From an uncultured Gammaproteobacteria bacterium (GTDB taxonomy: Bacteria > Patescibacteriota > Microgenomatia > CAYQLK01), in contig CAYGIG010000001.1 of NCBI GenBank assembly GCA_964349875.1, positions 52-64,051 on the forward strand: DNA of 64,000 nt, written 5' to 3'. Shown here piece by piece: positions 34,406 to 54,874 of this stretch (its first letter is position 1; every line of letters starts with the position of its first letter). A model generated the notes under the pieces. That model saw only the letters and a program-made list of their open reading frames with translations, made no database searches and was not told the origin of the DNA. A program made the position numbers and the translations under genes.

Positions 34406-34416
34406 AATTTTAAGCA

Positions 34417-34449
34417 ACAAAAAAGGCCGCCCATGTTGAGCAGCCTTTT
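34417..34449 (-). terminator. Rho-independent terminator downstream of tmRNA
   Basis: Minus strand AAGGCTGC-tcaacatg-GGCGGCCTT followed by a T-run. Confidence 0.45.
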
Positions 34450-34480
34450 TGTCTTTTCCTTTTTCAAGAAATTCCATTAG

Positions 34481-35235: not shown

Positions 35236-35802
35236 TTACTTTATTTCTCCCGCCGGCTCAGCTTTTTCAAGCCTGGCTTCTTTTTGAATAGCAAGTGACA
35301 CCTTAGCTGGATGGGGCACGGAATTAAAATCAAATTCCCGTTGTTCAGCGGCGGTCTGAATATGCACATGTCCGTAATCAAAAAACAGCCTCGCAATTCC
35401 CCCAACAGCCTGCGAAACATCTTCAATATTATCAAGCCCCGCGTAAGATACTTTTTTTGACAATAAGTTGTGAAAATCCACATCGATTATCCGCTCGTTA
35501 GTCAAAATATACGTATTATTAAACCAGCTAACCAATCTTTCCAATAACACTCCAAACGTTATCAAATACCACAAAATAGTTGCAATAATCCAATATTCAG
35601 CAGAAATTACACTGGTAATATCAATTTCATACATAGAAACTGCCCCAAAGAAAACAAATGGCACCAGAACCATTAAGCCCACAGTCACAAACCAGTTGAG
35701 CAAAACCACGAAATGCTGCCTTAGAAAAAGTATTACTTTTTCCCCCTCCTCTTGGCCTTCAAACGTTATATTTTCTGGGTTTTCAAAAAACGATTTCAAC
35801 AT
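35236..35802 (-). CDS. bacterial PH-domain (bPH_2/YdbS-like) membrane protein
   Basis: Two N-terminal TM helices, then ILTNERIIDVDFHNLLSKKVSYAGLDNIEDV, typical of DUF304/bPH_2. Confidence 0.55.
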   Translation of the reverse strand: MLKSFFENPENITFEGQEEGEKVILFLRQHFVVLLNWFVTVGLMVLVPFVFFGAVSMYEIDITSVISAEYWIIATILWYLITFGVLLERLVSWFNNTYILTNERIIDVDFHNLLSKKVSYAGLDNIEDVSQAVGGIARLFFDYGHVHIQTAAEQREFDFNSVPHPAKVSLAIQKEARLEKAEPAGEIK

Positions 35803-37639: not shown

Positions 37640-37658
37640 TGTTAGATTATACCTAACC

Positions 37659-38237
37659 ATGCATATCTTTAACCTCGCCCAAAAAACCATACTGGTTATG
37701 GCATTTTTTGTTTTCGGCACTATTTTCACCTATTTAGCTAATCCTCAACCCGTCCACGCAGAAGCAGGATGGAAAATAGTCGGCGGTGACAGTGTCGACA
37801 ACCCGCAACGGTGTATGTATTCTGACAACAACGCAGATTTTGAAAACGTTTATTCTTCTCAAGCAGCCTGCCAAGCAGGTCTTACAAATTCAGAAAACAC
37901 CGACTTTACCCCATTTAGCGGTGAATCCAGCGTACCTTGTCATCCAACTTGCTCCATCGGAGGCCTCTTCACTTTTGACACTAGCGACAAGGGTGGAAAA
38001 ACCGTTTCCCGTATTCTATTTATTAGTATTTCTATCGCCGCCATTATCTCATTTATTATGGCGGGCTTTGGAGCCGTCAGAATCATCACCTCTGCCGGCA
38101 ACCCAAGCGGTATTAACGCTGGAAGAGAAATGATAATTGCCGCCATTTCCGGCCTCCTCTTCATAATTTTTTCCGTCACAATTCTGCAAATTATTGGCGT
38201 TTCCTCCTTACAAATTCCGGGTTTTGGAATTTACTAA
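37659..38237 (+). CDS. VirB2/TrbC-type T4SS pilin-like protein with an N-terminal Cys-containing extracellular domain
   Basis: Signal/TM segment, then a domain with Cys at QRCMY, AACQAG and VPCHPTCSIGG. C-terminal hydrophobic-loop-hydrophobic module IITSAGNPSGINAGREMIIAAISGLLFIIFSV, shared with the five downstream paralogs. Confidence 0.6.
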   Translation: MHIFNLAQKTILVMAFFVFGTIFTYLANPQPVHAEAGWKIVGGDSVDNPQRCMYSDNNADFENVYSSQAACQAGLTNSENTDFTPFSGESSVPCHPTCSIGGLFTFDTSDKGGKTVSRILFISISIAAIISFIMAGFGAVRIITSAGNPSGINAGREMIIAAISGLLFIIFSVTILQIIGVSSLQIPGFGIY

Positions 38238-38240
38238 AAC

Positions 38241-38576
38241 ATGACAGACCAACTTAAACAAATTGCTCTCACTCTCGGCGATGTCAACGTCGACAACCCA
38301 ATCGGCTATAACCAATCCGGTCAGGCGTATAACGTCGGCACCTTAATCACTGCGGCCATGCTTGTTGTGATTTTTCCGTTTGCATTTTTGGTTTCAATAA
38401 TCCTCATCGCAATCGGTGGATTAAGAATCATTATGAGCCAGGGCAACCCAGGCGCAGTCTCAGGCGGACGATCAATGATAATCAACTCAGTCATTGGGCT
38501 TGTAATCATCTCAATTGCCTGGGCTGTTACTTCATTCGTCTCCACCAACCTACTTAACGTCAACGTAATCGGATAA
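38241..38576 (+). CDS. VirB2/TrbC-type T4SS pilin-like protein (paralog 2)
   Basis: TM1 LITAAMLVVIFPFAFLVSIILIAIGG, loop IIMSQGNPGAVSGGRSM, TM2 IINSVIGLVIISIAWAV. Confidence 0.65.
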   Translation: MTDQLKQIALTLGDVNVDNPIGYNQSGQAYNVGTLITAAMLVVIFPFAFLVSIILIAIGGLRIIMSQGNPGAVSGGRSMIINSVIGLVIISIAWAVTSFVSTNLLNVNVIG

Positions 38577-38577
38577 C

Positions 38578-38898
38578 ATGCAGGATTCCGCTAAATATTT
38601 AGCTCAAAACATAAGTATAAAAGAGTTGTTTCAACCCGCCAAAAGCGGAAAATTCGATAACGTGGGAGATCTTGGTTCTTTTATTTTTCAAATATTGCTT
38701 TATTTTGGCGTAATTCTCGCTGTGATTTTTATTATTATCGGCGGATACAAATTTATAACCTCCGGAGGCGACCCCGCAAAAGCTGCTGGCGCCAAAAGTA
38801 CACTTATTTATGCAATTGTTGGCCTTATTCTAATGTTCTTCTCTATTGTGATAATGTATGTAGTACAAGCCACTTTTATTAACAACGCCAAATTGTAA
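38578..38898 (+). CDS. VirB2/TrbC-type T4SS pilin-like protein (paralog 3)
   Basis: ITSGGDPAKAAGAKSTLIYAIVGLILMFFS loop and TM2. Start 2 nt after the previous stop. Confidence 0.65.
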   Translation: MQDSAKYLAQNISIKELFQPAKSGKFDNVGDLGSFIFQILLYFGVILAVIFIIIGGYKFITSGGDPAKAAGAKSTLIYAIVGLILMFFSIVIMYVVQATFINNAKL

Positions 38899-38899
38899 T

Positions 38900-39355
38900 A
38901 TGTCCAAAGTCAAATCGGCCATTATCACGGCAATATTTACGATCATCAATCTTTCAGGTTTTTTCCCTTTACTTGGCGTATCAAAAGCTCTGGCAGGCCC
39001 AACCGATGGAACTGATGGGGGTGGTAGTGGTGGAATTTCAGGAGAAAATAATCCATTAGGAGCAATAAGAGGTCCAAGCGGAGTTCCTACCGAACCAGGC
39101 TCCCTTGTTTCTATCATTAATTTATTAATAAAAGGTTTGATGGGAATTGGTTTTTTATTAGCTTTTATTTACTTACTTCTTGCAGGAATTAGCTATATTA
39201 CTAGTAACGGAGAACCTGCCAAAACCGCCGCAGCTCAGAAAAAAATCATCTACGCCATTATTGGAATGGTTGTTATTGGACTATCTTTTGCGGTCCTTTC
39301 ACTAATCGAAACAATATTCGGAATACCGGTTACAAGTCCGGAGCTTCCATTCTAA
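38900..39355 (+). CDS. VirB2/TrbC-type T4SS pilin-like protein (paralog 4) with Gly-rich insert
   Basis: ITSNGEPAKTAAAQKKIIYAIIGMVVIGLS, plus a flexible GPTDGTDGGGSGGISGENNPLG segment. Confidence 0.6.
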   Translation: MSKVKSAIITAIFTIINLSGFFPLLGVSKALAGPTDGTDGGGSGGISGENNPLGAIRGPSGVPTEPGSLVSIINLLIKGLMGIGFLLAFIYLLLAGISYITSNGEPAKTAAAQKKIIYAIIGMVVIGLSFAVLSLIETIFGIPVTSPELPF

Positions 39356-39424
39356 AACCTTGAAAGGGGGTGAGTTGTTATAAAAAAATTAATCGCCTTA
39401 TCATCTTCGATTGCCGGAACTTTA

Positions 39425-39763
39425 TTGACCTCAACATTTGCACTTGCTGACGAAATTAACGTAAACCCTTACGGAGTTAACGTCGCTGAACCTGGCCAAA
39501 TCTTAAGTTTCGTAATCAAAGCAATTATTTTTGCTGCGTTCCTTATCGCTTTCATCTGGCTGTTAATCGGTGGTATCAAATGGATCCTTAGTAGCGGAGA
39601 TCCAGGAAAAGTTGCTGCTGCCAGAAGCCAAGTAATTCACTCACTCGTTGGTTTAGTAGTTGTAGTTCTAGCTTTAGCTTTAATTATGCTTGTCCAACAG
39701 ATACTTGGAGTCAGTATTATTACTGGAGATTCATTTACCATTCCAACAATTGGAGGTAACTAG
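39425..39763 (+). CDS. VirB2/TrbC-type T4SS pilin-like protein (paralog 5); the signal peptide appears to be encoded upstream from ~39374 without a canonical start codon
   Basis: ILSSGDPGKVAAARSQVIHSLVGLVVVVLA. The in-frame upstream sequence after the TGA at 39371 reads VVIKKLIALSSSIAGTLLTSTFALA/DE, a textbook signal peptide. Only GTT/ATA/TTG codons are available as starts. Confidence 0.55.
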   Translation: MTSTFALADEINVNPYGVNVAEPGQILSFVIKAIIFAAFLIAFIWLLIGGIKWILSSGDPGKVAAARSQVIHSLVGLVVVVLALALIMLVQQILGVSIITGDSFTIPTIGGN

Positions 39764-39961
39764 GTTTTGGGTATCGTTAAACGCATACCTTGTAGCTTTT
39801 GTTTGAAAAAAAGTGGAAGATCTGTCCTTTTTCGAAGAACAATTAAGCGAGAACTTAAATTTCTAGTTCTTGAATAATATCGATTGCCGGAGAATGTATC
39901 CAGCAATCGATATTTCAAGTTTTAAACAAATTACTGTTATTATTTAGTTAATAGTCAAGAT

Positions 39962-40345
39962 ATGCCCAAATACCTCAAAATAATCTCAGCCTTCATTGCC
40001 ATAAACATCGGTTCTTCCACTGCGGTTTTTGCTGACGGAGAACCGCCGCAGATTGTGCAGCTTACAGAATTGATCAGCAAAATTATTGGATTTATCGCAC
40101 CAATTGCCGGTATTGGTTTCTTTCTAATACTTGTCTACGCAGGCTATTTGTACATCTTTTCTTTTGGTGATCCAGGCAAAGCCGGCAAGGCTCGAAGTGC
40201 CATGCTAACAGCCGTTATCGGTCTTGTCGTCTTGGTACTAATCTATTTAGTTTATGTCGCAATTGGGCTAATGACCGGCTGTAATGTACTTGAACTAAAC
40301 TTCAACAACCCTGACTCGGTTTGTCCAAGTAATACCGGGTCATAA
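39962..40345 (+). CDS. VirB2/TrbC-type T4SS pilin-like protein (paralog 6)
   Basis: Signal peptide, then IFSFGDPGKAGKARSAMLTAVIGLVVLVL. C-terminal Cys pair (GCN...VCPSN). Confidence 0.6.
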   Translation: MPKYLKIISAFIAINIGSSTAVFADGEPPQIVQLTELISKIIGFIAPIAGIGFFLILVYAGYLYIFSFGDPGKAGKARSAMLTAVIGLVVLVLIYLVYVAIGLMTGCNVLELNFNNPDSVCPSNTGS

Positions 40346-40355
40346 TTCAAAAGCC

Positions 40356-41540
40356 GTGATACCACAAAAAAAGATTCTCAGTTTTTTTGTATCCGTCACA
40401 CTAATCTTGGCCTCAGCTCCTCCTGTTTTGGCCGCTGCACCCAAAGTCTGTACCTACCCCGCTCCGCCAGATAGCTCCAACCCAACTTATGTCCAACCAA
40501 CCTGGTTCGAATTAGAAAACAAAACCGAAAACGAATTTAAACCTCCAAGGGCAGTAGTCAATGCCTCAGGAAACTCCGCCGTTGTAAACAAACCTGTATT
40601 ACCCTACGCACGCTCGATGGCCAACTACCTTGAGGGGAAATTTCAAACAGATTCACACCGTAAAGCAGATATTTCAAAATTTACCAATAATGAACTCAGC
40701 AACTTTAATGGACCATTAATAAAAGTATTACCTAAAAACAACCTCGACAAGCTCCGTCAAACCTATGTCGAAACAGTCTATCAGCTCTCCAAATCAGGCA
40801 CCACCAAGCTCGAGGAAGCAACCGCAGAATATGCCGACTTCTGTGGTCAGCATTTCAGAACAATTAAGGACCTATATTCAGCTTGGGGCAAACCCAAACC
40901 TCCGGGGCTAGACCAAGGTGTTTCCAACTCCAAATGGGAGAGTACTTGGGGAAGATATTGGGCAAAAATTCCTCTAGTCACCAATTGGACCTCAAGAGGC
41001 TGTCTCTCCTCGACATCTGACTCAAAAGACGTTTCCGAATCCTGCACTCCCGGAAGAGATTTGCTTCTAGGTGTCCCTTCTGTTGCCAGACTGGCTGCGC
41101 TTTCTCAAATCTTGCAGCAAATCACTATTCCGCAGGACCTAATCAAAGAAGCCAAAGATTTTAATCCCGAACCCGCCAAGGCCGAAGGACGCGAAGGCCC
41201 AGGAGAAGAATATATTCTTCTCTACAATAGCTCAGGCGTAGTTGCTAATTCTGTTGCTTACACCAAGACCGGTAGTCTAATTTCTGCCCGCATACCTTAT
41301 GTTGACGTCGCCTGGAAATCCTTAGTTCGCAAAAAAACCGGCGGTTTTAGACTGTTTGGCCCAGGAGATTTTTGGAGTACCCACAACACAGGCGAATTTT
41401 CCGATACAGCCTCAACCAGACTTAAAGGCTTTGGTAGTTCCAATCAAGTCTGGGCGGGTTACCTAGGCAGCATTCAAACCGCTAAAGAAATCATCCTAAA
41501 AACCATTACCCCTAAAGATGTTGAAATCAAAAAAGAGTAA
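40356..41540 (+). CDS. secreted protein of the T4SS-like locus (signal peptide; possible pilus-associated or adhesin component)
   Basis: GTG start. MIPQKKILSFFVSVTLILASAPPVLAAAP signal peptide. Mature part has several Cys. No known motif. Confidence 0.45.
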   Translation: MIPQKKILSFFVSVTLILASAPPVLAAAPKVCTYPAPPDSSNPTYVQPTWFELENKTENEFKPPRAVVNASGNSAVVNKPVLPYARSMANYLEGKFQTDSHRKADISKFTNNELSNFNGPLIKVLPKNNLDKLRQTYVETVYQLSKSGTTKLEEATAEYADFCGQHFRTIKDLYSAWGKPKPPGLDQGVSNSKWESTWGRYWAKIPLVTNWTSRGCLSSTSDSKDVSESCTPGRDLLLGVPSVARLAALSQILQQITIPQDLIKEAKDFNPEPAKAEGREGPGEEYILLYNSSGVVANSVAYTKTGSLISARIPYVDVAWKSLVRKKTGGFRLFGPGDFWSTHNTGEFSDTASTRLKGFGSSNQVWAGYLGSIQTAKEIILKTITPKDVEIKKE

Positions 41541-41593
41541 TTTTGCAAAAACTCATCGGTTAAGCATAAAATAAGCTAATTACTGCCAAACAA

Positions 41594-43279
41594 ATGCGTC
41601 TCAAACTAGTCCTGCCAATTATCGTAATAGCTAGCCTTCTCCTAACATTTTTCAGCTTCAAACCAGTATTTGCCGAGGACCCTTTTAAATGTGACGAGCA
41701 AGCAGCAGCCGCTGGCGGTGCAGCTTCAGGCACTTCAGCAATTTCCAACCCCCAATTGGGAGTCGGCGAAACAGTTCAACCCTACCAGCAATCAATTTGT
41801 CAGTACAAAAATGCCCTCGACGAGGACGATGTTAATCTGCAAAAATTCAACCTCGGCCTTATGGACAATCTTGCATTTGGCATTAATCGCCAAATTACCG
41901 GCCTCCCCGCAACAGACGCAGAATTAGCCTGTCTGGAAGCAGGTACATGCAAAACCAGTGCCGCAATTCCTTTTCTGATGAAAAGCATTTCTATGCTTTA
42001 CACTGAAAAACCGGCTTCAGGAGTGCAATATTTGGCCGACCTTAAATCAAAAATCACAGGCGACACACTCGCCGCCCAAACTGGCTACGACGCACTTAAA
42101 CCTACCCAAGCTCTTTGGACAACCTTCCGCAACCTCACCCTTCTTTTGTATGTCATTTTCTTTATCGTTATTGGTTTTATGATTATCTTCCGCCAAAGAT
42201 TAAGCTCTAGCTCTGTCGCTTCTGTTCAAGCGGTATTGCCAAAAATAATTGTCAGTCTAATTCTAGTAACTTTCTCCTATGCCATTGTTGGCTTAATGAT
42301 CGACCTGATGAACTTTTTCATCGCCATTATGATTAATATTCTTTCCACTCAAGACGTGGCCAGAGCAAACTCGAACGATATTTACTACAACAAAAGTGTC
42401 TTTAGTTTTATGTTTAATGACCTTTTTCTGAAAAATATCACAGGTATATTTTCTGTGCCGAACGATATTATCTCAGGGGCTCTTGATGAGGTCGACGTAA
42501 TGCCTGACTTAATTAATAATTTTGCCTCAGGATTACTCGCCGGCCTCGCAGTTGCTGTCATTGCAATAATGCTACTAGTCGCAACATTTAGAGTATTCAT
42601 GATGTTGCTAATGGCTTATGTTAAGGTCTTTTTCTACACCATCTTTGGGCCACTGATGATTGGTATTGGTGTTATTCCAGGTATGCCGGGATTTGGGCCA
42701 TGGATAAGAAACATCGCCGCACAACTCTCAACATTTGTCATTACTATTCTAATGATTATTTTTGCTGCGTACTTTATGGGAGTCAGTAAAGGCGATAACG
42801 GAATAACCTCAGGCGAAGCGACAATAACCTCAGGCGAGGGTTGGAATGCGCCATTATTGGGCGGCTTCACAAACCCTGAAGGTGGCGGTAACGCACTAAA
42901 GGGAATGATTGGTATAGGAATACTTTTAGGTATTCCGTCGGCAGCCAAAATCGCTCAAGACGCCTTTAAGGTTAAAGGTGGTGGAATTGGCGGCATGATC
43001 GGCGGAGCAGCCGGCGCTAGTGCTGGTGCAGGCATGGCAATGGCTGGAAGTCCGTTTAGAGGCGCTGCCGGCAGAGCAAAAACAAATGTCAATAATTTTG
43101 CCGGAGAAAGATTGAACAACACTTTTAATCCATTGAGTGCTGACCGAAGATATGACAGGCTCTCAAGACAAGCAGGTGCCTCCACACCAATAAACCCAGG
43201 TACTTCAGGTCCTGCAGGTCCAACATCGGTACCGGGAGCTAGGAATAGAGTCGCAAACCCCTTCCGCCGGAGAACATAA
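41594..43279 (+). CDS. VirB6/TrbL-like polytopic membrane protein with N-terminal Cys-rich exported domain and Gly-rich C-terminal tail
   Basis: Signal peptide. ~150-aa domain with 5 Cys. Then 5-6 TM helices (LLLYVIFFIVIGFMIIF, IIVSLILVTFSYAIVGLMIDLMNFFIAIMI, LLAGLAVAVIAIMLLVATF ...). GGIGGMIGGAAGASAGAGMAMAGS tail. Placed between the pilin array and VirB4, as VirB6 is in Gram-positive systems. Confidence 0.55.
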   Translation: MRLKLVLPIIVIASLLLTFFSFKPVFAEDPFKCDEQAAAAGGAASGTSAISNPQLGVGETVQPYQQSICQYKNALDEDDVNLQKFNLGLMDNLAFGINRQITGLPATDAELACLEAGTCKTSAAIPFLMKSISMLYTEKPASGVQYLADLKSKITGDTLAAQTGYDALKPTQALWTTFRNLTLLLYVIFFIVIGFMIIFRQRLSSSSVASVQAVLPKIIVSLILVTFSYAIVGLMIDLMNFFIAIMINILSTQDVARANSNDIYYNKSVFSFMFNDLFLKNITGIFSVPNDIISGALDEVDVMPDLINNFASGLLAGLAVAVIAIMLLVATFRVFMMLLMAYVKVFFYTIFGPLMIGIGVIPGMPGFGPWIRNIAAQLSTFVITILMIIFAAYFMGVSKGDNGITSGEATITSGEGWNAPLLGGFTNPEGGGNALKGMIGIGILLGIPSAAKIAQDAFKVKGGGIGGMIGGAAGASAGAGMAMAGSPFRGAAGRAKTNVNNFAGERLNNTFNPLSADRRYDRLSRQAGASTPINPGTSGPAGPTSVPGARNRVANPFRRRT

Positions 43280-43305
43280 GTTAATCCAGGTTTTTAGAAA
43301 AAAAA

Positions 43306-46131
43306 CTACAAATCCTTCTTTATCTGATCTTTACTCTGATTAAACAAGGTTTTTATCCAAAATACTGGCACATTCAATAATAAATTCTTCGGAGAAAGCA
43401 CCTCCCTTGCAAAAGCCTTAGTAATCTCCGCCGGCCTACTAACAAAAGTACGCTTCACTTTACCGCCATAAAGTTCTTTAAGTAATTGGTCCATTTCACT
43501 CTTACCAAGATAAACCGGCACTTGCTTGAGCAAATAGTCCTCAACTCTTCTCGGCCCCCATCTGCCATACTGCGGCTTATTATCTCCTTTAACATTTATT
43601 ACTCCGTTTACACTCATCTTATGTACCATCAATGCCTGCAATACACGCCTATTAAATTCGCGCCGGTCATCAGGTGATTTTGCAAAATAGCTATCCATTA
43701 GTGCTTTGGCTCCCTCTTCTGTCGGGCTCATTTCAAACGCTTCTAACTTACCGTACATGTCGTTAGTTTCAGTTGCTGCCGCGTCTTTATAAACATCATC
43801 TTTAAGATTGGTCACAATATTTGTATTCCTTTTTATTTTCTCTCCGAAATCGTCAATATTTTTAAACTCTTCAAGACTGCTCGAACCAAACAAGGCCATT
43901 AACTTTTCGGATGGATCTGTATATTTGTAAAATCCGTCTCTTAAAAATATGTGTTCAAAAATCGCCTGGTTCTCAAAATTAACCTTATTTCCCCCAGCCT
44001 CGATCATCCACTGCGGAAAGCGATCCTTAATTAGCGCATTGTCCTTGTAATTACCCGCAAAAATGTAATTTCTGTCATTAAAATATTTACCAGCCTTTCC
44101 CTTTGTTCCTTCGTCTCCAGGTTTTGGCGCCACCTTGATTGGCTCGATGACAATTGGCGCAATTGTCGTTTCGTAAAAATCTCTAGCAACAGCCATTCTC
44201 TGCTCAAAGGCAATTTTATTTGCTGAATACTCATTCGAGCCTTTAATTTTATCCGTCAACGCCTCCTTTTTTGCAGAATCACTATCATCGATCTCAAAAC
44301 CGTTTATCTCCGCAAACTTTGCTCTATATACACCGTTTTCCAAAAATTTTGCGTTCAACTTACTCTTTACAAAAACCTCTTTCATTTGCTGTTTAAATTT
44401 AAAACCCACTGTCCAATTATCCTGATGAGCGTCCTCAAAACCACTTTGCTCATCTGAACTCAATGCTACATATTGTGCCTGCAAATCATCGTCAACAAAA
44501 ACCCTGCCCTCATTGCCTAAAACAGTTTCATTTTTTAACCTGCTTCTTACTTCTTCTTCCGATTTTAATTCTGGAGCATTATTAATAGCCTTAAATACCG
44601 CAGAGTCTGCTTGATATCTCGCCAAAACCATCTTTCTTACAGCTTCCCCTTCCGCACCACCCAATATATCAACCAAAGCTTCGTAATTAAGTGTGCTAGA
44701 TAACGCTTCAGAAACCTCCTTGGCACCCCTGCCTTTAGCGGCGACAGCGAAATTATGCATTCTCCTTAAAGCTTCATATTCTCGTTTAAATTGATCTATG
44801 TCTGGTGAGAACGTTTGTCTAGTATCTGGATCAAGCTCGTCAAATCGGCGGATTTTATCACTATTAGCCGGAATTTCGCTGGGCTTTTCCAAATCCTGCA
44901 ACGCTCGTAATTTAATAATCTCCAACGGATTAAATGCCTCAATTGCACTACTAACTTCCAATCTTGCTTTTTCCAAAACAATATCTAAAGCATCTGCTCT
45001 CAAATCAAGCTCCTGTCTTTCTTCAACCTTCTTAACTTCCTTCTCTCTTAATCCTTGAATTGCACCAGACAGATCGTTAAATCTATTTAAAAGTTCCTCT
45101 TTGTTTATTCTGATACTGTCCGTTGCACGAATAGTCTCAATAATTCTTTTCTCCTGGTCTTTAATCCTGGTATAAATCCTGTCTCTATCTGTTCTATAAG
45201 CATCTTTACTACTCTCAGTTTCAAGTGTTGTCGTAAGTGCTTCCGAAATTTCATCGAGTTCAGCCAATTCAGTAACTGAGGCGGCCCCACTACTCTTTCT
45301 CTCCTCAAGCTCTTTCTTTCTTCCCAACTTACTGACACTTTTTTCGGCCGTGGGTTTGGACTCCGATTCTGCTGTAGGAGGCTTTGCTCCAAAAGCAGCA
45401 AAGGCGCCTTCTCGGTCACGAGTATTTAGTAATTGTTCAAAAAAATTAGCCGTCACCTCCATATCTCCACCAAGCTCTTCAGCTTTGGCTCTAATAGCTT
45501 CACTTGTAATACCTTCCGCCTGAAATCTCGCAAACAACCTCGCCGCTCGCTCTTCCGGACTATCGGTACCGTCAGAACCACCAGCATCAGTACCACCTGA
45601 ATCGCCCGAGTCCGCCGAATCATCAAAATTGTCGAAGTCGCTTGCAAAATAAGCTTGACTTATATCGTTTATTGCCTCATCCCTACTTCTTAACAGATCA
45701 AACCTATAGCTACCCCCGTCGATAAAAGAGGCATATTTAACTCCGTCATTTCCGACTACTATTGACTGTATTCTTTTTGGTTTGGCCCATATAAAAACTC
45801 CGCTGGTTCCGTTCTTATCCACCGCAACAACCAAATCCCCCACTTTAAAAGGGGAAGGATCATCATCCTCATTTTCATTCTTGGAAGTTTTTTCATCATC
45901 GCCCGTATCTTTCAAAATACTCGGATCTTGTCGCTCTCCAGGATTACTTGCGTCACGTCCGTCAAGCTCCTTCTCAAAAAAGTTTGCCGCGGCCTCTATG
46001 TCTCCATGAAACTCATCAGCTTTTGCTCTAATTTCGTCCGAAGTTATACCTGCCGCGCGGATTCTCGCAAACAACTCATTTGCTCTCTTTTGTGGATCTT
46101 CTAAAATAGAATCTTCTCTCTGTTCTGCCAT
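43306..46131 (-). CDS. large acidic hypothetical protein (941 aa) with two ~40-aa UBA-like internal repeats, embedded antisense in the T4SS-like locus
   Basis: Repeat 1 ELFARIRAAGITSDEIRAKADEFHGDIEAAANFFEKEL. Repeat 2 ARLFARFQAEGITSEAIRAKAEELGGDMEVTANFFEQLL. Asp/Glu-rich linkers (DSADSGDSGGTDAGGSDGTD). No Walker, HUH or TM motifs seen. Confidence 0.5.
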   Translation of the reverse strand: MAEQREDSILEDPQKRANELFARIRAAGITSDEIRAKADEFHGDIEAAANFFEKELDGRDASNPGERQDPSILKDTGDDEKTSKNENEDDDPSPFKVGDLVVAVDKNGTSGVFIWAKPKRIQSIVVGNDGVKYASFIDGGSYRFDLLRSRDEAINDISQAYFASDFDNFDDSADSGDSGGTDAGGSDGTDSPEERAARLFARFQAEGITSEAIRAKAEELGGDMEVTANFFEQLLNTRDREGAFAAFGAKPPTAESESKPTAEKSVSKLGRKKELEERKSSGAASVTELAELDEISEALTTTLETESSKDAYRTDRDRIYTRIKDQEKRIIETIRATDSIRINKEELLNRFNDLSGAIQGLREKEVKKVEERQELDLRADALDIVLEKARLEVSSAIEAFNPLEIIKLRALQDLEKPSEIPANSDKIRRFDELDPDTRQTFSPDIDQFKREYEALRRMHNFAVAAKGRGAKEVSEALSSTLNYEALVDILGGAEGEAVRKMVLARYQADSAVFKAINNAPELKSEEEVRSRLKNETVLGNEGRVFVDDDLQAQYVALSSDEQSGFEDAHQDNWTVGFKFKQQMKEVFVKSKLNAKFLENGVYRAKFAEINGFEIDDSDSAKKEALTDKIKGSNEYSANKIAFEQRMAVARDFYETTIAPIVIEPIKVAPKPGDEGTKGKAGKYFNDRNYIFAGNYKDNALIKDRFPQWMIEAGGNKVNFENQAIFEHIFLRDGFYKYTDPSEKLMALFGSSSLEEFKNIDDFGEKIKRNTNIVTNLKDDVYKDAAATETNDMYGKLEAFEMSPTEEGAKALMDSYFAKSPDDRREFNRRVLQALMVHKMSVNGVINVKGDNKPQYGRWGPRRVEDYLLKQVPVYLGKSEMDQLLKELYGGKVKRTFVSRPAEITKAFAREVLSPKNLLLNVPVFWIKTLFNQSKDQIKKDL

Positions 46132-46384
46132 AATTTAAATATACCTCATTATACCACTTTTAGCCTTATTGGATAGTCCCATAGTTTTTATATTAAGCTC
46201 ATATATTAAATAATAAAAATAGACAAATATCTCTCATTTGCCACTCCTAAATCAGCTTCAAAAATTTCACGCTTTCTTTTCACTGCAACCTATATTTTTT
46301 TCTGCTAAAATCGCTATGCAAATAACATCCTGCCTTTACTCTAATTAATTATTGCACCATAAAAAAGCGGGATAAACCTTTGAT

Positions 46385-48409
46385 ATGGAAGAGCATGCTG
46401 TACCGCAGAACATAACTAATTTTGAGTTCAAACTTTTTGGCCCTTTTACCATCCATCAATTCATTTATGTTGCCATAGGCGGCATTATCGGAGCTGTTTT
46501 TTATTTTTCACCGCTTCCAAAAGGCATTGCTTATATTCTTGGTGGAATTGCTGTTTTTGGAGGTATCGGGTTTGCTGCCATCCCTTTGCAGGGCAGGTCT
46601 CTAGATAAATGGATTATCGCTTTCTTTCGCTCAATTACTCACCCAACCCAGCGAATTTGGATTAAAGATAATCACATTCCATATTTTCTCGAAACCAGCT
46701 TTCTGCAAACCACCCCTCAACCTACAACTACCCAGCCTCTTGCCTCGCCGCGCCTTAATCATGCTGATTTACAAACACTTTTAGCCAAGCAACGCCGCAC
46801 CACAAACGATAATCCCTTCGATCAAAAAGAAAGTCAGTTTTTGAGTCAAATTTTAAGTCTTAACTCGACCGTTAAAGCTACAGCCGCACCACCACCCCAA
46901 AATCAACAAGCCAATCAATCCCCATTCTCTCCATTCCAAAAACCTTATCGAACTTCGCGTCCAATTATTCAAGCCACTCCTAAGCCGGCCCAGCTTTTAG
47001 TGCGGGAACAGGAGATAAAAGCACAAGAACTAGCTTTGGCTGAAAAACAGAAGGAATTAGAAGCAACCAAGCTCAAACTCGAAGCTGAAAAGCAAAAAAA
47101 ACTTGAACTTCTAACTCAAAAACCTACCATTCAGGCGCACGCAATCGGCAACTTAGAGATTCAAAAACGTCCTGAACCATCTCCAGCTTCTACTCCGATC
47201 ATAAAATTCTCCGACTATCCGGAAAGCCTTAATCCTGATCGCGAGATCAAAGTTCTGCCTTACAACCCAATCACTGCCCCTGCTGGATCCACAGCTCCTC
47301 AAAATCCTCACACGGACCACACCGCAACCGACCAGGCCTCTAAACAAAGGCTGGCCGAGCTTGATAAAGTTCTTCTGGCCCAGCAAAAGATCGAGGCTGA
47401 GATAAAAGCCAAAGAAGAAGAAATTAAGCATCAGCAAACAAAAATTCAGCAGGAAGAAGAAAAGTTCACTCAAGCATGGAAAGATTTCGAAAAAACCAAA
47501 AGCCTGATCGAAGGAGGGGTTGATACCTCCACACCTGACGCGCTGTCTAGACACATGCTTACAAATATTGGCAAAAAAACCACTGTTGCACCAATGCCGT
47601 CATCAAACTTCTCATCTCTTTACAGCACCCAGCCAATCGCCGCTCAAATAGCTTCAGACATAAATTTCGGCGGTAATGTAATTGCCATCCCCGGCATTAA
47701 AGTACAATTTCTTCAAGGCATTGGAGACACTAGAATCAGAAAACTTCGTTCCAGACCGCCTGATTTTTCAAAAGCAACCCTGCCAATTCTCGGAGAAAGA
47801 CAGTTTGATATCAGCAAAGAACTGAAAAAACGCTACGAACAACCCTCAGAATCCACAGCCGTCAAAACCGCACCAGCAACGGGAATTTCTATTGAACAAA
47901 TAAAAAAAGTCGGCGACTTTCAACCAGTCAGGGCAGGAGAAATAAAAGAGCACGAGAGTAAAAACTTTACCCCGCCTCCAAGCCCTAATATTCACCCCAA
48001 ACCAGAAAAACAATCTAAAACACAGGAGAATGTTGAACACACCCCCGCCCAGCGACCTAAACACGGCCAAATAGTCCAACCCTTTAACTACCAAAAAGAG
48101 ACTTCAAATACCGCCCCAAAAGCCGAAGTCAAAATCAACCTTTCCGAACATTCCAACACTCCCAACGGTATTGTTTACAATAGCCAGGGCGGGCTGATCC
48201 AGGGAGCACTAATCTCTGTATTTGATCGTGACGGGGTTCCTGTTAGGGCTTTCAAAACTAACGGTCTTGGTCAGTTCGTCTCCGTCACACCACTGCCTGA
48301 TGGACACTATACGATTCAGACAGAATTTAACGGTTTAAACTTTGATACAATTGCCTTCGATGCAGAAGGAAAGCTTCTTGATCCATTTGCTATAACTGCT
48401 AAAAACTAA
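46385..48409 (+). CDS. PrgI/VirB3-like membrane hairpin fused to coiled-coil, Pro/Gln-rich linker and C-terminal carboxypeptidase-regulatory-like beta-sandwich domain
   Basis: N-terminus FEFKLFGPFTIHQFIYVAIGGIIGAVFYFSPLPKGIAYILGGIAVFGGIGFAAIPLQGRSLDKWIIAFF is a two-TM hairpin like PrgI/TcpE/VirB3 analogues upstream of VirB4. Then a heptad region (KELEATKLKLEAEKQKKLE). C-terminus GIVYNSQGGLIQGALISVFDRDGVPVRAFKTNGLGQFVSVTPLPDGHYTIQTEFNG is CarboxypepD_reg-like. Confidence 0.55.
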   Translation: MEEHAVPQNITNFEFKLFGPFTIHQFIYVAIGGIIGAVFYFSPLPKGIAYILGGIAVFGGIGFAAIPLQGRSLDKWIIAFFRSITHPTQRIWIKDNHIPYFLETSFLQTTPQPTTTQPLASPRLNHADLQTLLAKQRRTTNDNPFDQKESQFLSQILSLNSTVKATAAPPPQNQQANQSPFSPFQKPYRTSRPIIQATPKPAQLLVREQEIKAQELALAEKQKELEATKLKLEAEKQKKLELLTQKPTIQAHAIGNLEIQKRPEPSPASTPIIKFSDYPESLNPDREIKVLPYNPITAPAGSTAPQNPHTDHTATDQASKQRLAELDKVLLAQQKIEAEIKAKEEEIKHQQTKIQQEEEKFTQAWKDFEKTKSLIEGGVDTSTPDALSRHMLTNIGKKTTVAPMPSSNFSSLYSTQPIAAQIASDINFGGNVIAIPGIKVQFLQGIGDTRIRKLRSRPPDFSKATLPILGERQFDISKELKKRYEQPSESTAVKTAPATGISIEQIKKVGDFQPVRAGEIKEHESKNFTPPPSPNIHPKPEKQSKTQENVEHTPAQRPKHGQIVQPFNYQKETSNTAPKAEVKINLSEHSNTPNGIVYNSQGGLIQGALISVFDRDGVPVRAFKTNGLGQFVSVTPLPDGHYTIQTEFNGLNFDTIAFDAEGKLLDPFAITAKN

Positions 48410-48411
48410 AG

Positions 48412-49443
48412 ATGAAATCTGCCCCGATCAAATCATCAACTCAAGACCATCTAGATATCGCAGACATTCGCGATGATGTTGTTATACTTAAAGATAATTC
48501 CGCCGCAATCGTTATTCAAACAGCGGCCATAAATTTTGAACTGCTCTCCGAGTCTGAACAGGATTCAATTATTTATTCATACGCCGGACTATTAAACTCA
48601 CTTAACTTCACCACACAAATCGTTGTACGCAGTAAAAAAATCGATCTTAGTAATTATTTACAGCTGATCTCAGACGCAGAATCCCATCAGGCTAACCCTG
48701 ATATCAAGCGCCAGATCTATCAGTACCGGCAGTTTATTCAGACGATTGTTCAGCAAAATAACGTCTTAGAGAAAAAATTCTACGTGGTTGTTCCTTTTAA
48801 TCCACTCGAGTTAGGCGTCAAGGGCGCAGCTTTAGGCAAAGTTCAAAAAGACACAACACACCTTCAGGGTTTTATTGATTTGGTCAAAACCAGTCTTTAT
48901 CCAAAACGAGACCATTTGATCAAACAGTTTGCTCGTCTAGGAGTTAAATCCAAACAATTAACCACTCAGGAGTTAATAGAGCTGTATTTTGATATTTACA
49001 ATCCAAGCGAGGTCGGATTGCAAAAAATCACCGAAGCTGCAGGATCATACACCTCCCCAATGGTCTCACCGGCCGTAGCTGCTCCAAATCTCGCAGATCC
49101 AAGCACAAACGACTTAGCTCCGATCGTACCGACTACATCAAACCTTGCCCAATCGGGTCCAAACCTTGAATTACAACCTGCCCCTTTTGCACCTGCAGCA
49201 CCGCAAAACAACCCCACAATCTCAGCTCCGCCACCAAGTATTCAGCCGGCTACTCCCGTTGTCACCACTGAAACTCCGATCCAAAATACCAACATTCCGC
49301 CAATTCCAGATCAAACTCCGGTAAACTCATTTTCTCCCGCTGCACAAAACTCTCAAGCCCCAGAACAGCCCGAGGTAACTCCCAGCAGCAACACTCTCGA
49401 TCCTGACATTCTAAAGGCTCTCGATGCACTAAAATCGCCTTAA
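48412..49443 (+). CDS. VirB4 N-terminal-domain-like protein lacking the ATPase domain, with Pro-rich C-terminal tail
   Basis: DIADIRDDVVILKDNSAAIVIQTAAINFELLSESEQDSIIYSYAGLLNSLNFTTQIVVRS follows the N-terminal pattern of VirB4/TrbE family proteins. No Walker motifs. C-terminal ~120 aa are Pro/Ala/Thr-rich. Confidence 0.45.
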   Translation: MKSAPIKSSTQDHLDIADIRDDVVILKDNSAAIVIQTAAINFELLSESEQDSIIYSYAGLLNSLNFTTQIVVRSKKIDLSNYLQLISDAESHQANPDIKRQIYQYRQFIQTIVQQNNVLEKKFYVVVPFNPLELGVKGAALGKVQKDTTHLQGFIDLVKTSLYPKRDHLIKQFARLGVKSKQLTTQELIELYFDIYNPSEVGLQKITEAAGSYTSPMVSPAVAAPNLADPSTNDLAPIVPTTSNLAQSGPNLELQPAPFAPAAPQNNPTISAPPPSIQPATPVVTTETPIQNTNIPPIPDQTPVNSFSPAAQNSQAPEQPEVTPSSNTLDPDILKALDALKSP

Positions 49444-49465
49444 CGGCACAAAAAATAATAAACAT

Positions 49466-51334
49466 ATGAGTATATTCGGCAAGAAAAACAACCAAGACTC
49501 AGGCCAGACAGCACCACAGTTGGCATCTGCTCAGGCAAAAGCCGTTGCACAAGGTACGGTTTCAGTACGCGACATTATCGCCCCGCCTGCAATTGAGGTT
49601 GACTTTGACTCAATAAAAATCGGAGAAACGTACTTTAAAACACTCTTTGTTATTGGCTACCCTCGATATGTGGGTGCCAACTGGCTATCTCCGCTTATTA
49701 ACTTCAACCACACACTGGAAATATCTATGTTTCACTATCCTGTCGAAGCCCAGGCTGTTTTAGATGACATTAAGCGAAAGATCGGCGAAATGGAAGCCAC
49801 GATCTCTACCGACATCCAAAGAGGAAAAGTCGTTGACCCAAGTGTTGAGGTCGCACTCGACGACGCACGTGAATTTCAGCAGAATCTTGTCAAAGGAGCC
49901 GAAAAATTCTTCCAGTTTGGTCTTTATGTCACAGTTCCCGCCGACACCAAAGAGGAGCTTGTAAATATCACCAAACAAGTCGAGAGCCTGCTTGGCTCTA
50001 TTATGGTCATCTCCAAACACGCAACACTACAGCAAGAAGACGGATTCCGTACCACACTGCCTTACGGTCACGACAAAATGCTTGTGACCAGAAACATGGA
50101 CACAACCTCGCTGGCCACAACTTTTCCGTTTACTTCCAGCTCGCTTACCAGCAATGAAGGAATTATGTATGGTATCAACGAGCACAACGGCTCGCTTATT
50201 ATCTTTGACCGTTTTAGTCTGGAAAATGCCAATACGGTAATTTTTGCAAAATCCGGTGGAGGAAAGTCGTATTTAACCAAACTTGAGGCTCTCCGCTCTC
50301 TAATGTTCGGAACAGAAATCATCATTATTGATCCTGAGGAAGAATATAAAAATCTCTGTACAGCAATAGGCGGCGAATATATTAGTTTTGACTTCAACTC
50401 CGACACCAAAATTAACCCATTTGATCTCTCCGGAGTTTACGAAGAAGGCGAAAACGAGCTGGGCCTCAAAATCCTTTCACTCCACGGGTTGTTCAGAGTC
50501 ATCATGGGACAGCTTTCTGCCACTGAAGATGCTATTCTCGACCGAGCCTTGGTACTCGCTTACAAGAACAAAGGCATAACCGCTGATCCTCAAACACAAA
50601 CCCTTCAACCGCCATTGATGGAAGATTTGTACAAAGCCCTAATCGGCATGGAGGAACCACAAGCACAAACTCTGGCCGAAAGGATTGAAAAATTTGTCAA
50701 AGGCTCATTGGTTGGAATTTTTGATCAATATTCCAATCTGGATATCCGAAACACATTCACTGTTTTTAGTATTAAAAATCTCGAAGCAGAACTTCGTCCT
50801 ATCGCAATGTACATCATCCTCGATTTTATTTGGACCAGAGTTAAAAGGGATCTTAAAAAGAGAATACTAATAGTCGATGAGGCTTGGTACATGATGCAAT
50901 ATCCGGACTCGGCCACTTTTATGTATTCAATTGCCAAGCGCGCCCGAAAATATTATCTCGGCCTGACCACTATCACACAGGATGTTGAAGATTTTCTCGG
51001 TACTGAGTACGGCAAAGCCATCGTTACAAACTCCAGTTTGCAGATTTTACTCAAACAATCTCCCGCAGCAATCGACAAACTCGCCGAAGTCTTTTATCTC
51101 TCAGAAGGAGAAAAACATCTGCTTTTGGCCGCAGATGTTGGAGAAGGGTTGTTTTTTGCAGGCAGCTCCCATGTCGCTATGCGTGTAATTGGCTCTCCAG
51201 AGGAACACCAACTTGTTACCAGCAACCCCAAAGAAGTACTTGAAATGCAAAACCAGGCTGAAGCCGAACAGGCAAACATTGATAGAGACAGCTCTCAAGC
51301 ACAAGCCTCTGATCAAACTCAGGAAATCATCTAA
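49466..51334 (+). CDS. virB4: VirB4/TraC/CagE-family T4SS ATPase (Gram-positive-type, PrgJ/TcpF/ConE-like)
   Basis: N-terminal KTLFVIGYPRYVGANWLSPLINF. Walker A FAKSGGGKSY. Walker B ILIVDEAWYMM. LGLTTITQDVEDF C-terminal motif. 622 aa. Confidence 0.85.
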   Translation: MSIFGKKNNQDSGQTAPQLASAQAKAVAQGTVSVRDIIAPPAIEVDFDSIKIGETYFKTLFVIGYPRYVGANWLSPLINFNHTLEISMFHYPVEAQAVLDDIKRKIGEMEATISTDIQRGKVVDPSVEVALDDAREFQQNLVKGAEKFFQFGLYVTVPADTKEELVNITKQVESLLGSIMVISKHATLQQEDGFRTTLPYGHDKMLVTRNMDTTSLATTFPFTSSSLTSNEGIMYGINEHNGSLIIFDRFSLENANTVIFAKSGGGKSYLTKLEALRSLMFGTEIIIIDPEEEYKNLCTAIGGEYISFDFNSDTKINPFDLSGVYEEGENELGLKILSLHGLFRVIMGQLSATEDAILDRALVLAYKNKGITADPQTQTLQPPLMEDLYKALIGMEEPQAQTLAERIEKFVKGSLVGIFDQYSNLDIRNTFTVFSIKNLEAELRPIAMYIILDFIWTRVKRDLKKRILIVDEAWYMMQYPDSATFMYSIAKRARKYYLGLTTITQDVEDFLGTEYGKAIVTNSSLQILLKQSPAAIDKLAEVFYLSEGEKHLLLAADVGEGLFFAGSSHVAMRVIGSPEEHQLVTSNPKEVLEMQNQAEAEQANIDRDSSQAQASDQTQEII

Positions 51335-51389
51335 AATCAGCCTGAAATGGCCTGCTACACCATAAAAGATTTATGATTAAGTAAGTAGT

Positions 51390-54300
51390 ATGCCTCAACA
51401 GACAGCCGAACAAACCAAACCCAAAAACGCCCTTGATCAACTTCTTCAATTCCGGCTGGCCGATTGGGCTTTGGAATTTTTTGAAACATCAAGCTCAGAA
51501 CAAAACCCGCCGCGCTTCCCAACCCCTGAAGAATTTAATCAAAAATTTCACGATTTATTTCCGGATGCCGACTATCAGCAAACACTTATTGTTATCCAAA
51601 ATATCGCTGATAAATATCACGTTAACGATATTGGTCAGAACATTATTCTGTTAAGGCAAATTTTTGCAGGTCTAATAAAAAACGACCTTGAAGAATTAGA
51701 AATCTCAACCGAAACTTCAACTCCTATCATTCAAAAAACAAAGGGAGAACAAAAAACCCTTCCAAAAAGCGGGCTGGCAGTGCTTGAAGAGGTCGATTCA
51801 ATCATTGAAAAACTTCGACAGACTCGCACTGAAGAGACTTTGCCTCCGGCAGTGGAGCTGCCTGAAACATTAAAGATCCCCACTCCGCAAGCCCAGCCGG
51901 CTTCTTTCCAAACTGCTGATTTGCCCGCGTCACCACGGCCCATCCAGTCAGACTCAAACATCAACAAACCACAACTTACGCTCCCAAACGACTTTAAAAC
52001 ACAAACCACACCGGCTTCAATTGCCGAGTCCGATATCGCACCCACGACTAAAAGACTCGAAGGCACGGTCAACCTTACTCATACCGAACTTCAAACTGCA
52101 GTTAAAAACCTTATTCTCTCTCCGGTCGTCGCCGCAAATATCTTTTCCCGTCAAATTGATAAACCAAACCAAGAAAGAATAGCTGCCAACATTGCCAAGG
52201 CCGTGGCAACACGAATTGTCTACACCACCCACACCGCAGACTTTCAAGAACTTTCACCAGTTTTAGCTTCAGAAATCTACGAATCTGCCACACAAGACCC
52301 CTTAACAGCTCCGAGTTCCGGAAAACTACTAAAATCTGAAGATTTCCTGCAAGCTGTCGATACTATTTCCGAAAACAACTTTCCGGCAATTTCTCAAGCC
52401 AACGTTGCTTCCCAAATTCTCCTAATCAGCACACTTACAGACTCTAAAAATGCACCAGCTGTACACAGCGAAATCATTAATAAAGCAGTCACAACCAGCT
52501 TAAAAATTAATCCCGCCAAAAATACCGCCAAAAACAAGCTCACTATAACCACAGCAGTTCAGCAAGTGTATCTTCCGGCAATCGCAGTAAGGGTTTTATC
52601 AAAAACCAAAGAAGATCTTGATAAAAATATCCCTCTCGAACCAAAACGCTTCCTCCAAAATCTCGACACGGCTCAAGAACAAAGTTTTCAGTCTTTCTTA
52701 AAACATTTAGACAATAAGCTCGAAGACAAAACCATCATTGCCGAAGCAATACCCAGGTTTGTAATCGATACGGTCTCACAAGAAATCCTTAAACCTGTAA
52801 ATGTTTACGCCCAAGGACAGAGATCAATTAATACGCCAGAAGCCGAGGCTGCCGAAAACCACGCCTTTGCATCACTCATGTCCAACCCCAAAAGACAACA
52901 GGAAAGCTATCAGGATTTTTTGGTTGAGTCTCTGCACCCAAACCCGCAGAGATATTCTGTGCTTCACGAAAGCGTTCGAGAGTTCGGCAACAGGGAATCA
53001 AAAAGTCTTGGTCAGACAATATTGCTCGCGAATTACACAAGCGAAATGGATCTATATGAACAAATTCCTCAATTTAAAAACCCTGCTCGCAGGTCGATTT
53101 GGAGAATGGGCGGGTTTTCGCGCAGTTATTATTCTCAAAGCCCCGCGGGCCAAGCAGTTACAAGATCGGTCAATTTTGTGCCTAAAAAATCGTATTTCAA
53201 GTTTTCTCAAAAATTCTCATCCGGCAGAGCAAAGGGTGCTCTAAAAGCATTTGCTAAAAAAGGGGCTGGTAAGGTCGCCGCAAAAGTGGGTATTTCAGTC
53301 GCAGTCGGAGCAGCAACCGGCGGCACGTCATTGCTCTTACAGGCAGCAATTATGCTCGCTCTAAAATTCAAAAAACAAATTGCCAAAATTCTTGGAGTCC
53401 TAATTGCTTTACAAATATTGTTTTTGCTTTGGCTTTTAACGCAAGCCGCTGCTTTTGTTATGGGGGCACTCGTTGGAGCCACAATAGGCTTTGCTCTTGG
53501 CGGACCAATTGGAGCAATGGTAGGCGGATTTTTGGGCGGCACAGCTTCAGTTTGGTTGTACAGCCATTTCCCTCCTTATGCAGCGTTTGTTGACAATGTC
53601 TTACTTAATCTACCTAAACTTTGGAGTGCTGTTACAGCGCCAATAGGATGGGCAGCCTCAGCATTTGGAGCAATAAGCGCGACAGCCTCATTTGTTGGTG
53701 GCGCAGCGGGAGCAACTGCTTCTTTTATTGGTGGCGGGGCCTCGTTTGTTGGTGGATTATTAACAGGAGGAGGTGGCGGCAGCGCAATTGTCTCAACACT
53801 CGCAAGCCCAGGCGTACTCATTCCCACAGCCACCGTCGGAGGGCTCGCCGCTTTTTCTGTCCTTAGTTACAACCTGTTAGCTTCAGCTTTATACACTAAC
53901 CCCAGTCTTCCGGAGCAAATTGTCCTTCCGGGCGATGCCACTGAAGGAGAAACAACAAACACATATATTTCGATTCAAAAATTGGCCTCTGTAAATGCAA
54001 AATCTCTCGGACCAGCCAAAACTATCAACCTTGAAAACTTCGACCTGCCCCAAACCGTGACTTACTCAGTCAGCATCACTGCAGGCGCGCAACCCGTTTA
54101 CAACATAACTTGTACAGATGCTATTACTCACACCACTAAATCAGGCTCGGTCAGAAATCTTACAAGCCCGGCAATTAACTGCCCAACCTCTTTAGCTCCG
54201 AATCAATCAGAGCTGATAACATACAACTTAAATCTAGCCTCTGATCCCATCTTTTATGACTCCAGTATAAATAATAAGTTTTCGATTAATTTCAAATCTT

Positions 54301-54872: not shown

Positions 54873-54874
54873 AA

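Follow-up and report, generated by a model that had tools for sequence, protein, structure and literature searches.

A large antisense gene linked to a type IV secretion locus of Microgenomatia encodes a candidate secretion substrate or docking scaffold

The type IV secretion systems (T4SSs) of Patescibacteria derive from the conjugation systems of monoderm bacteria, include arrays of pilin genes, usually come without a relaxase, and often lie beside dnaA, according to the part of Quinonero-Coronel et al. (2025, PMC12102498) that is drawn on here. The same part of that study holds it possible that very different relaxases remain undiscovered. In Southlakia epibionticum, the one species tested, the T4SS is essential for epibiotic growth (Wang et al. 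2023, PMC10633639). Patescibacterial T4SSs are described without a relaxase, and no substrate is named for them, in PMC10633639 and PMC11665869; because the relaxase is missing, these machines are suspected of exporting protein. In this report we examine a gene for a 941-residue protein (the target) that lies antisense within such a locus on a 64,000-nucleotide stretch of contig CAYGIG010000001.1 (the window). The locus is of the patescibacterial MPF-FATA-like type: with the systems covered by the cited part of PMC12102498 it shares a monoderm-type VirB4, PrgI/VirB3, a TrsD-like protein, an array of VirB2-like pilins, peptidoglycan hydrolases, the lack of a relaxase, and adjacency to dnaA and dnaN. 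The target is not among the components catalogued in that part of the study, and it matches no profile.

43306-46131, minus strand: target coding sequence, 941 aa (from the listing of ATG-to-stop open reading frames (ORFs) with translation, composition, hydropathy, and selection on homologues)

With low confidence, we propose that the target is dedicated to the T4SS, either as an exported substrate or as a docking scaffold. The version that we favor, at a probability of roughly 0.35, is that this clade-restricted cytoplasmic protein serves the T4SS by docking on the machine and then being exported as a substrate, and we rank it slightly ahead of the scaffold. Docking and export are what we infer; that the target is cytoplasmic, restricted to one clade, and tightly linked to the T4SS locus we regard as established.

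The target is a real gene under purifying selection. Its 941 codons run uninterrupted from ATG to stop, and the encoded protein has a pI of 4.99 and a net charge of -34, in agreement with an earlier reading of the bare DNA (the sequence-only reading) that had described a 941-aa acidic protein. The same reading had seen no transmembrane (TM) segments. Neither a TM segment nor a signal peptide was found in the target, the highest Kyte-Doolittle mean over 19-aa windows being 0.97, and the same hydropathy analysis returned clear leaders and TM segments in the neighboring exported and membrane proteins.

The family to which the target belongs is small. A word-indexed search of 5.8 billion proteins returned only the target itself and P0002 (56% identical), and a rerun on this index with a four-sequence profile returned nothing further. 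Four real clusters emerged when 1.84 billion representatives were searched exhaustively with HMMER, namely P0002, P0003 (844 aa, E 2e-161), P0004 (787 aa, E 8e-111), and P0005, which is a fragment; a further match, P0006, was spurious and due to low complexity. When the family hidden Markov model (HMM) was run on 80 VirB4-anchored loci, three more members were found (L010, L012, and L013), and these are exactly the loci in which VirB4 is at least 87% identical to that of the window and the upstream region is present. One other locus, L011, also exceeds 87% identity in VirB4, but its contig ends too near VirB4 to show the position in question. Viral contigs, plasmids, and metagenome contigs from JGI yielded no relatives. 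Every member belongs to a Microgenomatia clade close to Curtissbacteria, and a VirB4-alignment scan of species-representative genomes places the organism of the window in Patescibacteria, Microgenomatia, with Candidatus Curtissbacteria as the nearest named relative (VirB4 about 74-76% identical). Many records with Patescibacteria-type T4SS loci (L010-L013, L019, L024, and others) are titled "uncultured Gammaproteobacteria bacterium", and L033 and L088 are labeled Bathyarchaeia and Nanoarchaeia; these labels are probably placeholders or mis-assigned and do not name real hosts. As a separate observation, P0005 (390 aa) begins with ~230 N-terminal aa of the target family (L010-like) and continues with C-terminal sequence from a homologue of the 394-aa protein encoded near the target, a fusion that is probably a misassembly or an inversion.

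Wherever a homologue exists (the window, L001-L010, L012, and L013), it occupies the same position in the same orientation, down to a target identity of about 37%. It is always antisense, convergent with the gene for a polytopic VirB6-like protein, divergent from PrgI/VirB3, and near dnaN/dnaA. This strict co-location supports the tie to the T4SS locus that the sequence-only reading had drawn, as well as the co-conservation that it had suggested as a check; no housekeeping family, the finding that it had named as speaking against such a tie, matches the target. The neighbors that define the position, and the ATPase used as anchor, are the following.

41594-43279, plus strand: 561-aa polytopic membrane protein, convergent neighbor of the target; hydrophobic leader and at least four TM segments; VirB6-like by topology and position only
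46385-48409, plus strand: PrgI (VirB3-like), 674 aa, divergent neighbor of the target; PF12666 at E 4.6e-8, above the curated cutoff; two N-terminal TM segments
49466-51334, plus strand: VirB4 ATPase, 622 aa; NF045971 conju_CD1110 at E 9e-121

The PF12666 match confirms that the target diverges from a VirB3-like gene. Its convergence with a polytopic membrane protein stands as well, with the qualification that the name VirB6 reflects topology and position, as the 561-aa protein has no match in Pfam or NCBIfam.

Most of the conservation within the family lies in the C-terminal two features listed here.

43309-45231, minus strand: conserved family core (aa 301-941), predicted to be almost wholly alpha-helical, with long antiparallel helical bundles in the first half
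43309-43356, minus strand: invariant C-terminal tail motif (aa 926-941), W-x-K-T-[LI]-[FY]-x-[QE]-S-x-x-Q-I-[KR]-x-D-L

In an alignment of seven members, column identity is 0.6-0.8 from about aa 300 to the end, and the N-terminal region is gap-rich and poorly conserved. The tail motif stands at the extreme C-terminus of all seven and has no other occurrence in the window or in 89 loci. Its region has a low predicted local distance difference test score (pLDDT) in the model of the core, and the tail is probably flexible. AlphaFold2 (AF2) produced a poor full-length model from two sequences (pLDDT 42.7). The core model from five sequences reached a pLDDT of 71.6 and a predicted template modeling score of 0.65, with pLDDT 80-90 over aa ~313-670, and is almost all helical; the ~650-aa helical region of the sequence-only reading is thereby recovered as a C-terminal core of ~640 aa. 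Foldseek returned nothing significant for the core model. Structural matches to the triple-helical repeats of spectrin and plakin cover <30% of the core at 5-15% identity and are generic for long antiparallel helices. No match above threshold came from Pfam, NCBIfam, PHROGs, or PADLOC for the whole protein, for its isolated modules, or for any of the seven members, and PDB sequence searches with the whole protein, the core, the repeat, and the beta-domain as queries gave no meaningful match. With neither an enzymatic nor a known fold detectable, the statement that the protein has no recognisable enzymatic motifs holds.

The N-terminal third has a different architecture, made of modules and linkers.

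45952-46095, minus strand: helical module copy 1 (aa 13-60), three predicted helices (BLASTP against copy 2, DNA repeat, AF2)
45850-45951, minus strand: acidic linker, probably disordered (aa 61-94); Asp+Glu 30%, net charge -7, pLDDT 25-34
45637-45849, minus strand: small beta-rich domain plus helix (aa 95-165), predicted by AF2 at low confidence
45559-45636, minus strand: Asp/Ser/Gly-rich linker (aa 166-191) before copy 2; D 23%, G 17%, S 14%
45412-45558, minus strand: helical module copy 2 (aa 192-240) (BLASTP, module HMM, DNA repeat)
45232-45411, minus strand: variable linker into the core (aa 241-300); family column identity 0.21-0.43, many gaps

The sequence-only reading had given prominence to two ~40-aa UBA-like repeats in this region. 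The repeats are real: aa 13-60 and 192-239 align without gaps over 48 residues (29/48 identical, BLASTP E = 2e-18) and are also visible as a direct repeat in the DNA (45437-45559 and 45974-46096, 72% identical, spacing 537 nt). Since the copies differ by a nonsynonymous divergence (dN) of 0.30 at a synonymous divergence (dS) of about 1.2, the duplication is an old one, and constraint acts on each copy. In the poor overall model, AF2 places helices at 13-26, 31-40, and 45-61 in copy 1 (pLDDT about 50-65) and at 192-205, 210-219, and 224-236 in copy 2 (module pLDDT about 50-70). The UBA label has no profile support. No UBA, CUE, or TS-N profile of the UBA clan in Pfam matched the whole protein or either repeat alone at E <= 10, the sole Pfam match being DUF6074 below threshold (19.9 bits, cutoff 27.2), and a PDB profile search with the repeats listed no UBA protein. 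Patescibacteria have bacterial or archaeal hosts, and these would not be expected to possess a ubiquitin system. "UBA-like" is a mere resemblance in helix pattern: the 48-aa module has the predicted helix-loop-helix-loop-helix order of UBA domains (PF00627 and relatives) and, by eye, a Gly-Ile/hydrophobic first loop and a Gly-Asp before helix 3 that recall UBA, CUE, and EF-Ts N-terminal modules.

Two details of the earlier layout had to be corrected. An Asp/Gly/Ser linker had been said to follow each repeat; the Asp/Ser/Gly stretch of aa 166-191 instead precedes copy 2, and what comes after copy 2 is a linker rich in Ala, Pro, Lys, and Glu. The layout had also omitted the predicted five-strand beta-domain with its helix (aa ~95-165) between the copies. 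At low confidence, AF2 puts its strands at 100-104, 111-115, 121-127, 130-136, and 141-143 and the helix at 150-161; this domain has no match in Pfam or PDB. A simple-sequence origin of the acidic linkers was considered and dropped, as no tandem DNA repeat was found in them.

Both N-terminal elements are patchily distributed. The three-helix module occurs twice in the window protein only and once each in P0002 and P0003, and it is not recognisable in P0004, L010, L012, or L013. Of the seven members, only the window protein and P0002 have the beta-domain, which is absent from P0003, P0004, L010, L012, and L013. An HMM of the module found no further copy in other window proteins or in the 89 loci, and no candidates in the 5.8-billion-protein index. 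Since relatives carry two, one, or no copies and no UBA profile supports the module, it is unlikely to be the functional core and reads as a lineage-specific add-on. The one-copy state of P0002 has to be treated with caution because of a possible chimera or recombination at position 45554. The locus that carries P0002 (L001, ena:ERZ27247837:k141_1976999) has 100% DNA identity to the window over 46385-56130, from PrgI to a gene for a 351-aa protein; identity is about 89% over 45554-46385 (the intergenic region and the first 192 target codons) and about 70% below 45554, so that the breakpoint falls exactly at the start of copy 2. L003, a second contig of that sample, has the gene in its window-type form and ends in a PrgI fragment just 97.5% identical. 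The mosaic may be a real recombination or an assembly chimera that crosses strains.

Between the window and its relatives, identity is 40-45% for the target core, 63-71% for PrgI, 72-78% for TrsD, 72-82% for the VirB6-like protein, and 88-93% for VirB4, so that among the large proteins of the locus the target core shows the lowest conservation. On the window lineage, dN is 0.57-0.62 for the target versus 0.05-0.07 for VirB4. Because the core stands at 40-45% while PrgI stands at 63-71% in this lineage, the lineage in which the N-terminal additions arose is also the one in which divergence has sped up.

Under the substrate reading, the helical core (aa ~300-925) and the invariant tail would dock the target on the cytoplasmic face of the complex of VirB4, the TrsD-like protein, PrgI, and the VirB6-like protein, and the docked protein would then be exported as an effector substrate towards the host cell; the N-terminal region, with its three-helix modules, beta-domain, and acidic linkers, would be a changeable, lineage-specific addition. 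Two traits expected of an effector were found, the lack of a Sec signal or TM segment and a fixed position in the T4SS locus in all homologue loci. We place export ahead because the machine has neither a relaxase nor a known cargo, and because the target has no Sec signal, belongs to a family far less conserved across clades than the machine parts, and combines a modular N-terminus with an invariant C-terminus. A positively charged C-terminal signal was considered and dropped: the last 30 residues have a net charge of +1 to +4 across the family, which is not exceptional within the protein.

That unexceptional charge is the first of several observations that weigh against export, and most of the others are points in favor of a non-secreted scaffold or adaptor, a possibility that we hold nearly as likely. 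Such a protein would form an elongated helical platform on VirB4, the TrsD-like protein, and PrgI by way of its core and tail, would recruit or place other factors through its variable N-terminal modules, and might itself substitute for the absent coupling protein. The ratio of dN to dS (omega) between L010 and L012 is 0.055 for the target, 0.045 for PrgI, 0.06 for TrsD, and 0.01 for VirB4; purifying selection on the target as strong as on PrgI and TrsD fits a machine component as well as cargo. In lineages other than that of the window, the target core (54-71% identical) diverges only slightly faster than PrgI (61-70%). The predicted long antiparallel bundles resemble the repeats of spectrin and plectin, which are typical of scaffolds. 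The gene is present in one copy per genome at a fixed position, with no immunity-like or chaperone-like gene adjoining it. Type IV coupling proteins (T4CPs) normally recruit the substrates of T4SSs, and neither the window nor the loci of this clade that were examined contain one. Finally, in Gottesmanbacteria-like loci the corresponding position holds a T4CP together with a 184-aa gene and a ~1200-aa acidic protein, which hints at a T4CP-associated partner. The scaffold has difficulties of its own, however. A partner of VirB4, which is 88-93% identical among these relatives, should stay recognisable, whereas homology to the target vanishes outside the clade with VirB4 at least 86% identical; the accelerated divergence of the core in the window lineage is likewise not what a scaffold would lead one to expect. 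A chaperone-like role, which the sequence-only reading had also put forward, fits a 941-aa protein poorly.

The position between the VirB6-like gene and PrgI (the slot) is informative beyond the family itself. Absence of the gene from otherwise syntenic loci had been named in advance as an argument against a link to secretion, and the result is divided. Loci with VirB4 63-78% identical (Curtissbacteria and other Microgenomatia) have no detectable target homologue, yet in their slot, too, lie large genes on the minus strand whose products have neither TM segments nor Pfam domains. Curtissbacteria-type loci have one slot family of 924-1385 aa, present in nine loci. In loci of the Gottesmanbacteria/Woesebacteria type, three co-oriented genes occupy the slot and encode a T4CP of about 725 aa (PF10412, PF02534), a 184-aa product, and an acidic protein of 1147-1392 aa, and the remaining loci have several smaller slot families and singletons. 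In L053, L059, L061, L066, L076, L086, and similar loci, this antisense three-gene block is found upstream of PrgI at about 1.3-7.9 kb (locus coordinates); its coupling protein is VirD4-like and about 727 aa long, and its ~1200-aa acidic protein has no Pfam domain and a hydrophobic tail (RKYWWV...). The slot proteins of the Curtissbacteria and Gottesmanbacteria types resemble the target in being antisense, adjoining the VirB6-like gene, large, acidic (pI 5.4-6.1), and free of TM segments and Pfam domains. Their C-terminal helix is hydrophobic or amphipathic, and they have no significant sequence or profile similarity to the target. An hhalign probability of <= 7% gives no significant link between these families, and the idea of homology was dropped as unsupported; the best E value, 0.005, came from a co-linear match over the C-terminal ~150 residues between the target family and the Curtissbacteria family, for which C-terminal parts only were compared.

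The slot may hold either one rapidly diverging orthologue or a site that accepts different genes. One tentative and rather doubtful extension would make it a "cargo slot" of Microgenomatia T4SSs, filled by different large, acidic, signal-less proteins that would be T4SS substrates delivered to hosts, with the invariant tail of the target as an export or docking signal. The difference in slot occupants between clades, together with the orphan status of a family that has no functional annotation, would also suit a lineage-specific passenger gene that has no functional link to the T4SS and is kept by local synteny. This we consider unlikely: position and orientation are kept while the flanking proteins diverge to 60-80% identity, and the recurrence of analogous large TM-less antisense genes at the same slot in many Microgenomatia T4SS loci would be improbable for unrelated passengers.

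The presence of a true T4CP beside a large protein in the antisense slot of related Microgenomatia raises a further alternative, namely that the target is a remnant or divergent form of a DNA-processing module of the ancestral conjugative element (relaxase-like, or a T4CP partner) that was kept antisense to the genes for mating-pair formation and has since been repurposed. Descent of the T4SS from monoderm conjugation systems, and the possibility of undiscovered divergent relaxases, both as put in the part of PMC12102498 used here, would accommodate such an origin. The tests made of it point the other way. In the target no T4SS-DNA_transf, TrwB_AAD_bind, or AAA match and no TM segment was found, and an HMM built from 22 Microgenomatia T4CPs has no match in the window. 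Across all seven members, Pfam and NCBIfam show no relaxase, HUH, Rep_trans-type, primase, Walker, or T4CP signature; the all-alpha model shows no nuclease-like fold, and there is no homology to the ~1200-aa proteins of the Gottesmanbacteria type. A degenerate T4CP or relaxase was rejected on these grounds, and we judge the broader DNA-processing origin quite unlikely.

The remaining features of the locus are listed here.

38241-40345, plus strand: five VirB2-like pilin genes, upstream of the locus; PF18895 T4SS_pilin, four of the five above the curated cutoff
40356-41540, opposite strand to the target: gene for a 394-aa secreted protein, two genes away from the target
43280-43305: convergent junction, 26 nt between the stop codons of the VirB6-like gene and the target
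46132-46384, no strand: divergent intergenic region, 253 bp, AT-rich, common to the target and the PrgI-like gene (from the sequence)
48412-49443, plus strand: TrsD/TraC-like protein, 343 aa; PF26593 TraC-like, with weak TrsD and VirB4 N-terminal matches

The gene order is thus five VirB2-like pilins, the secreted 394-aa protein, the polytopic 561-aa protein, the antisense target, PrgI/VirB3, the TrsD/TraC-like 343-aa protein, VirB4, a 1160-aa M23 peptidase, and a 351-aa protein with a single TM segment. Within 38241-55897, which extends from the pilin array through the 351-aa gene, the target is the only large minus-strand ORF, and to that extent the earlier description of it as the only antisense gene in the locus is right; in the conserved left flank, a SpoIID-like gene (35843-37729) and a 188-aa gene (35236-35802) also lie on the minus strand. 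Since dnaN and dnaA (56233-58971) follow within 0.3-1.7 kb and the transfer-messenger RNA (tmRNA) gene and several tRNA genes lie upstream, the locus is chromosomal. No stable hairpin was found at the convergent junction (z = 0.4), and a bidirectional terminator there was dropped for that reason.

The divergent intergenic region is relevant to the suggestion of the sequence-only reading that the target may be a regulator of the apparatus, whether transcriptional or post-translational. A divergent layout with the PrgI-VirB4 operon across a 253-bp AT-rich region is common for regulators. However, no helix-turn-helix, receiver, kinase, anti-sigma, or other DNA-binding or signaling domain was detected in the target, which at 941 aa is far above the size of a typical locus regulator, and a promoter scan of the region gave weak sigma-70-like matches only, no more than in shuffled sequence. 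The suggestion is left without support, and we regard it as very unlikely.

Several further observations were made on the locus and its surroundings. VirB4 is split, in that the 343-aa TrsD/TraC-like protein resembles the VirB4 N-terminal domain and is followed by the 622-aa ATPase, and this split is kept in all related loci. The PrgI-like protein is unusually long (674 aa) owing to a ~600-aa extension behind its two-TM VirB3 part; within this extension, aa 595-651 weakly match a CarboxypepD_reg-like beta-sandwich, and a stretch around aa 320-375 is coiled-coil-like. For the five divergent pilin paralogues, identity between related genomes ranges from about 52% to 91%, so that their degree of conservation differs widely. 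Over ~100 nt at its 5' end, a 284-aa ComF-like ORF (33728-34582, GTG start) is overlapped by the tmRNA gene (34478-34934, minus strand); the true start of this ORF is probably further downstream. GC skew is negative in every 2-kb bin of the window, the cumulative curve falls steadily through dnaN/dnaA, and no switch of skew that would mark an origin beside dnaA was found within the 64,000 nt.

The target and the recurring slot proteins are concrete candidates for a T4SS substrate or for an unrecognised cytoplasmic subunit. The most telling points are the strict linkage of the target to the T4SS, its invariant tail, and the recurring antisense slot rather than the duplicated module. As judged from its sequence, the gene is genuinely unannotatable and a reasonable candidate for a T4SS partner or cargo in Patescibacteria; practical value is limited, as the evidence is genomic and the family occurs in just a few Microgenomatia, ultra-small bacteria that are uncultured.

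Among the known systems compared, the Saccharimonadia loci L081 and L085 also encode a large antisense protein, of ~1100 aa, but this one has TM segments and lies before VirB6, unlike the window. CagA of Helicobacter pylori is a large, mostly helical T4SS effector without a Sec signal that is encoded at its secretion locus, varies between lineages, and needs its C-terminal region for recognition. The target has no sequence or fold similarity to CagA, and its locus has neither a nearby gene for a CagF-like chaperone nor a T4CP. The likeness between the two is a general one and lies in size, helicity, the lack of a Sec signal, linkage to T4SS genes, and variability between lineages.

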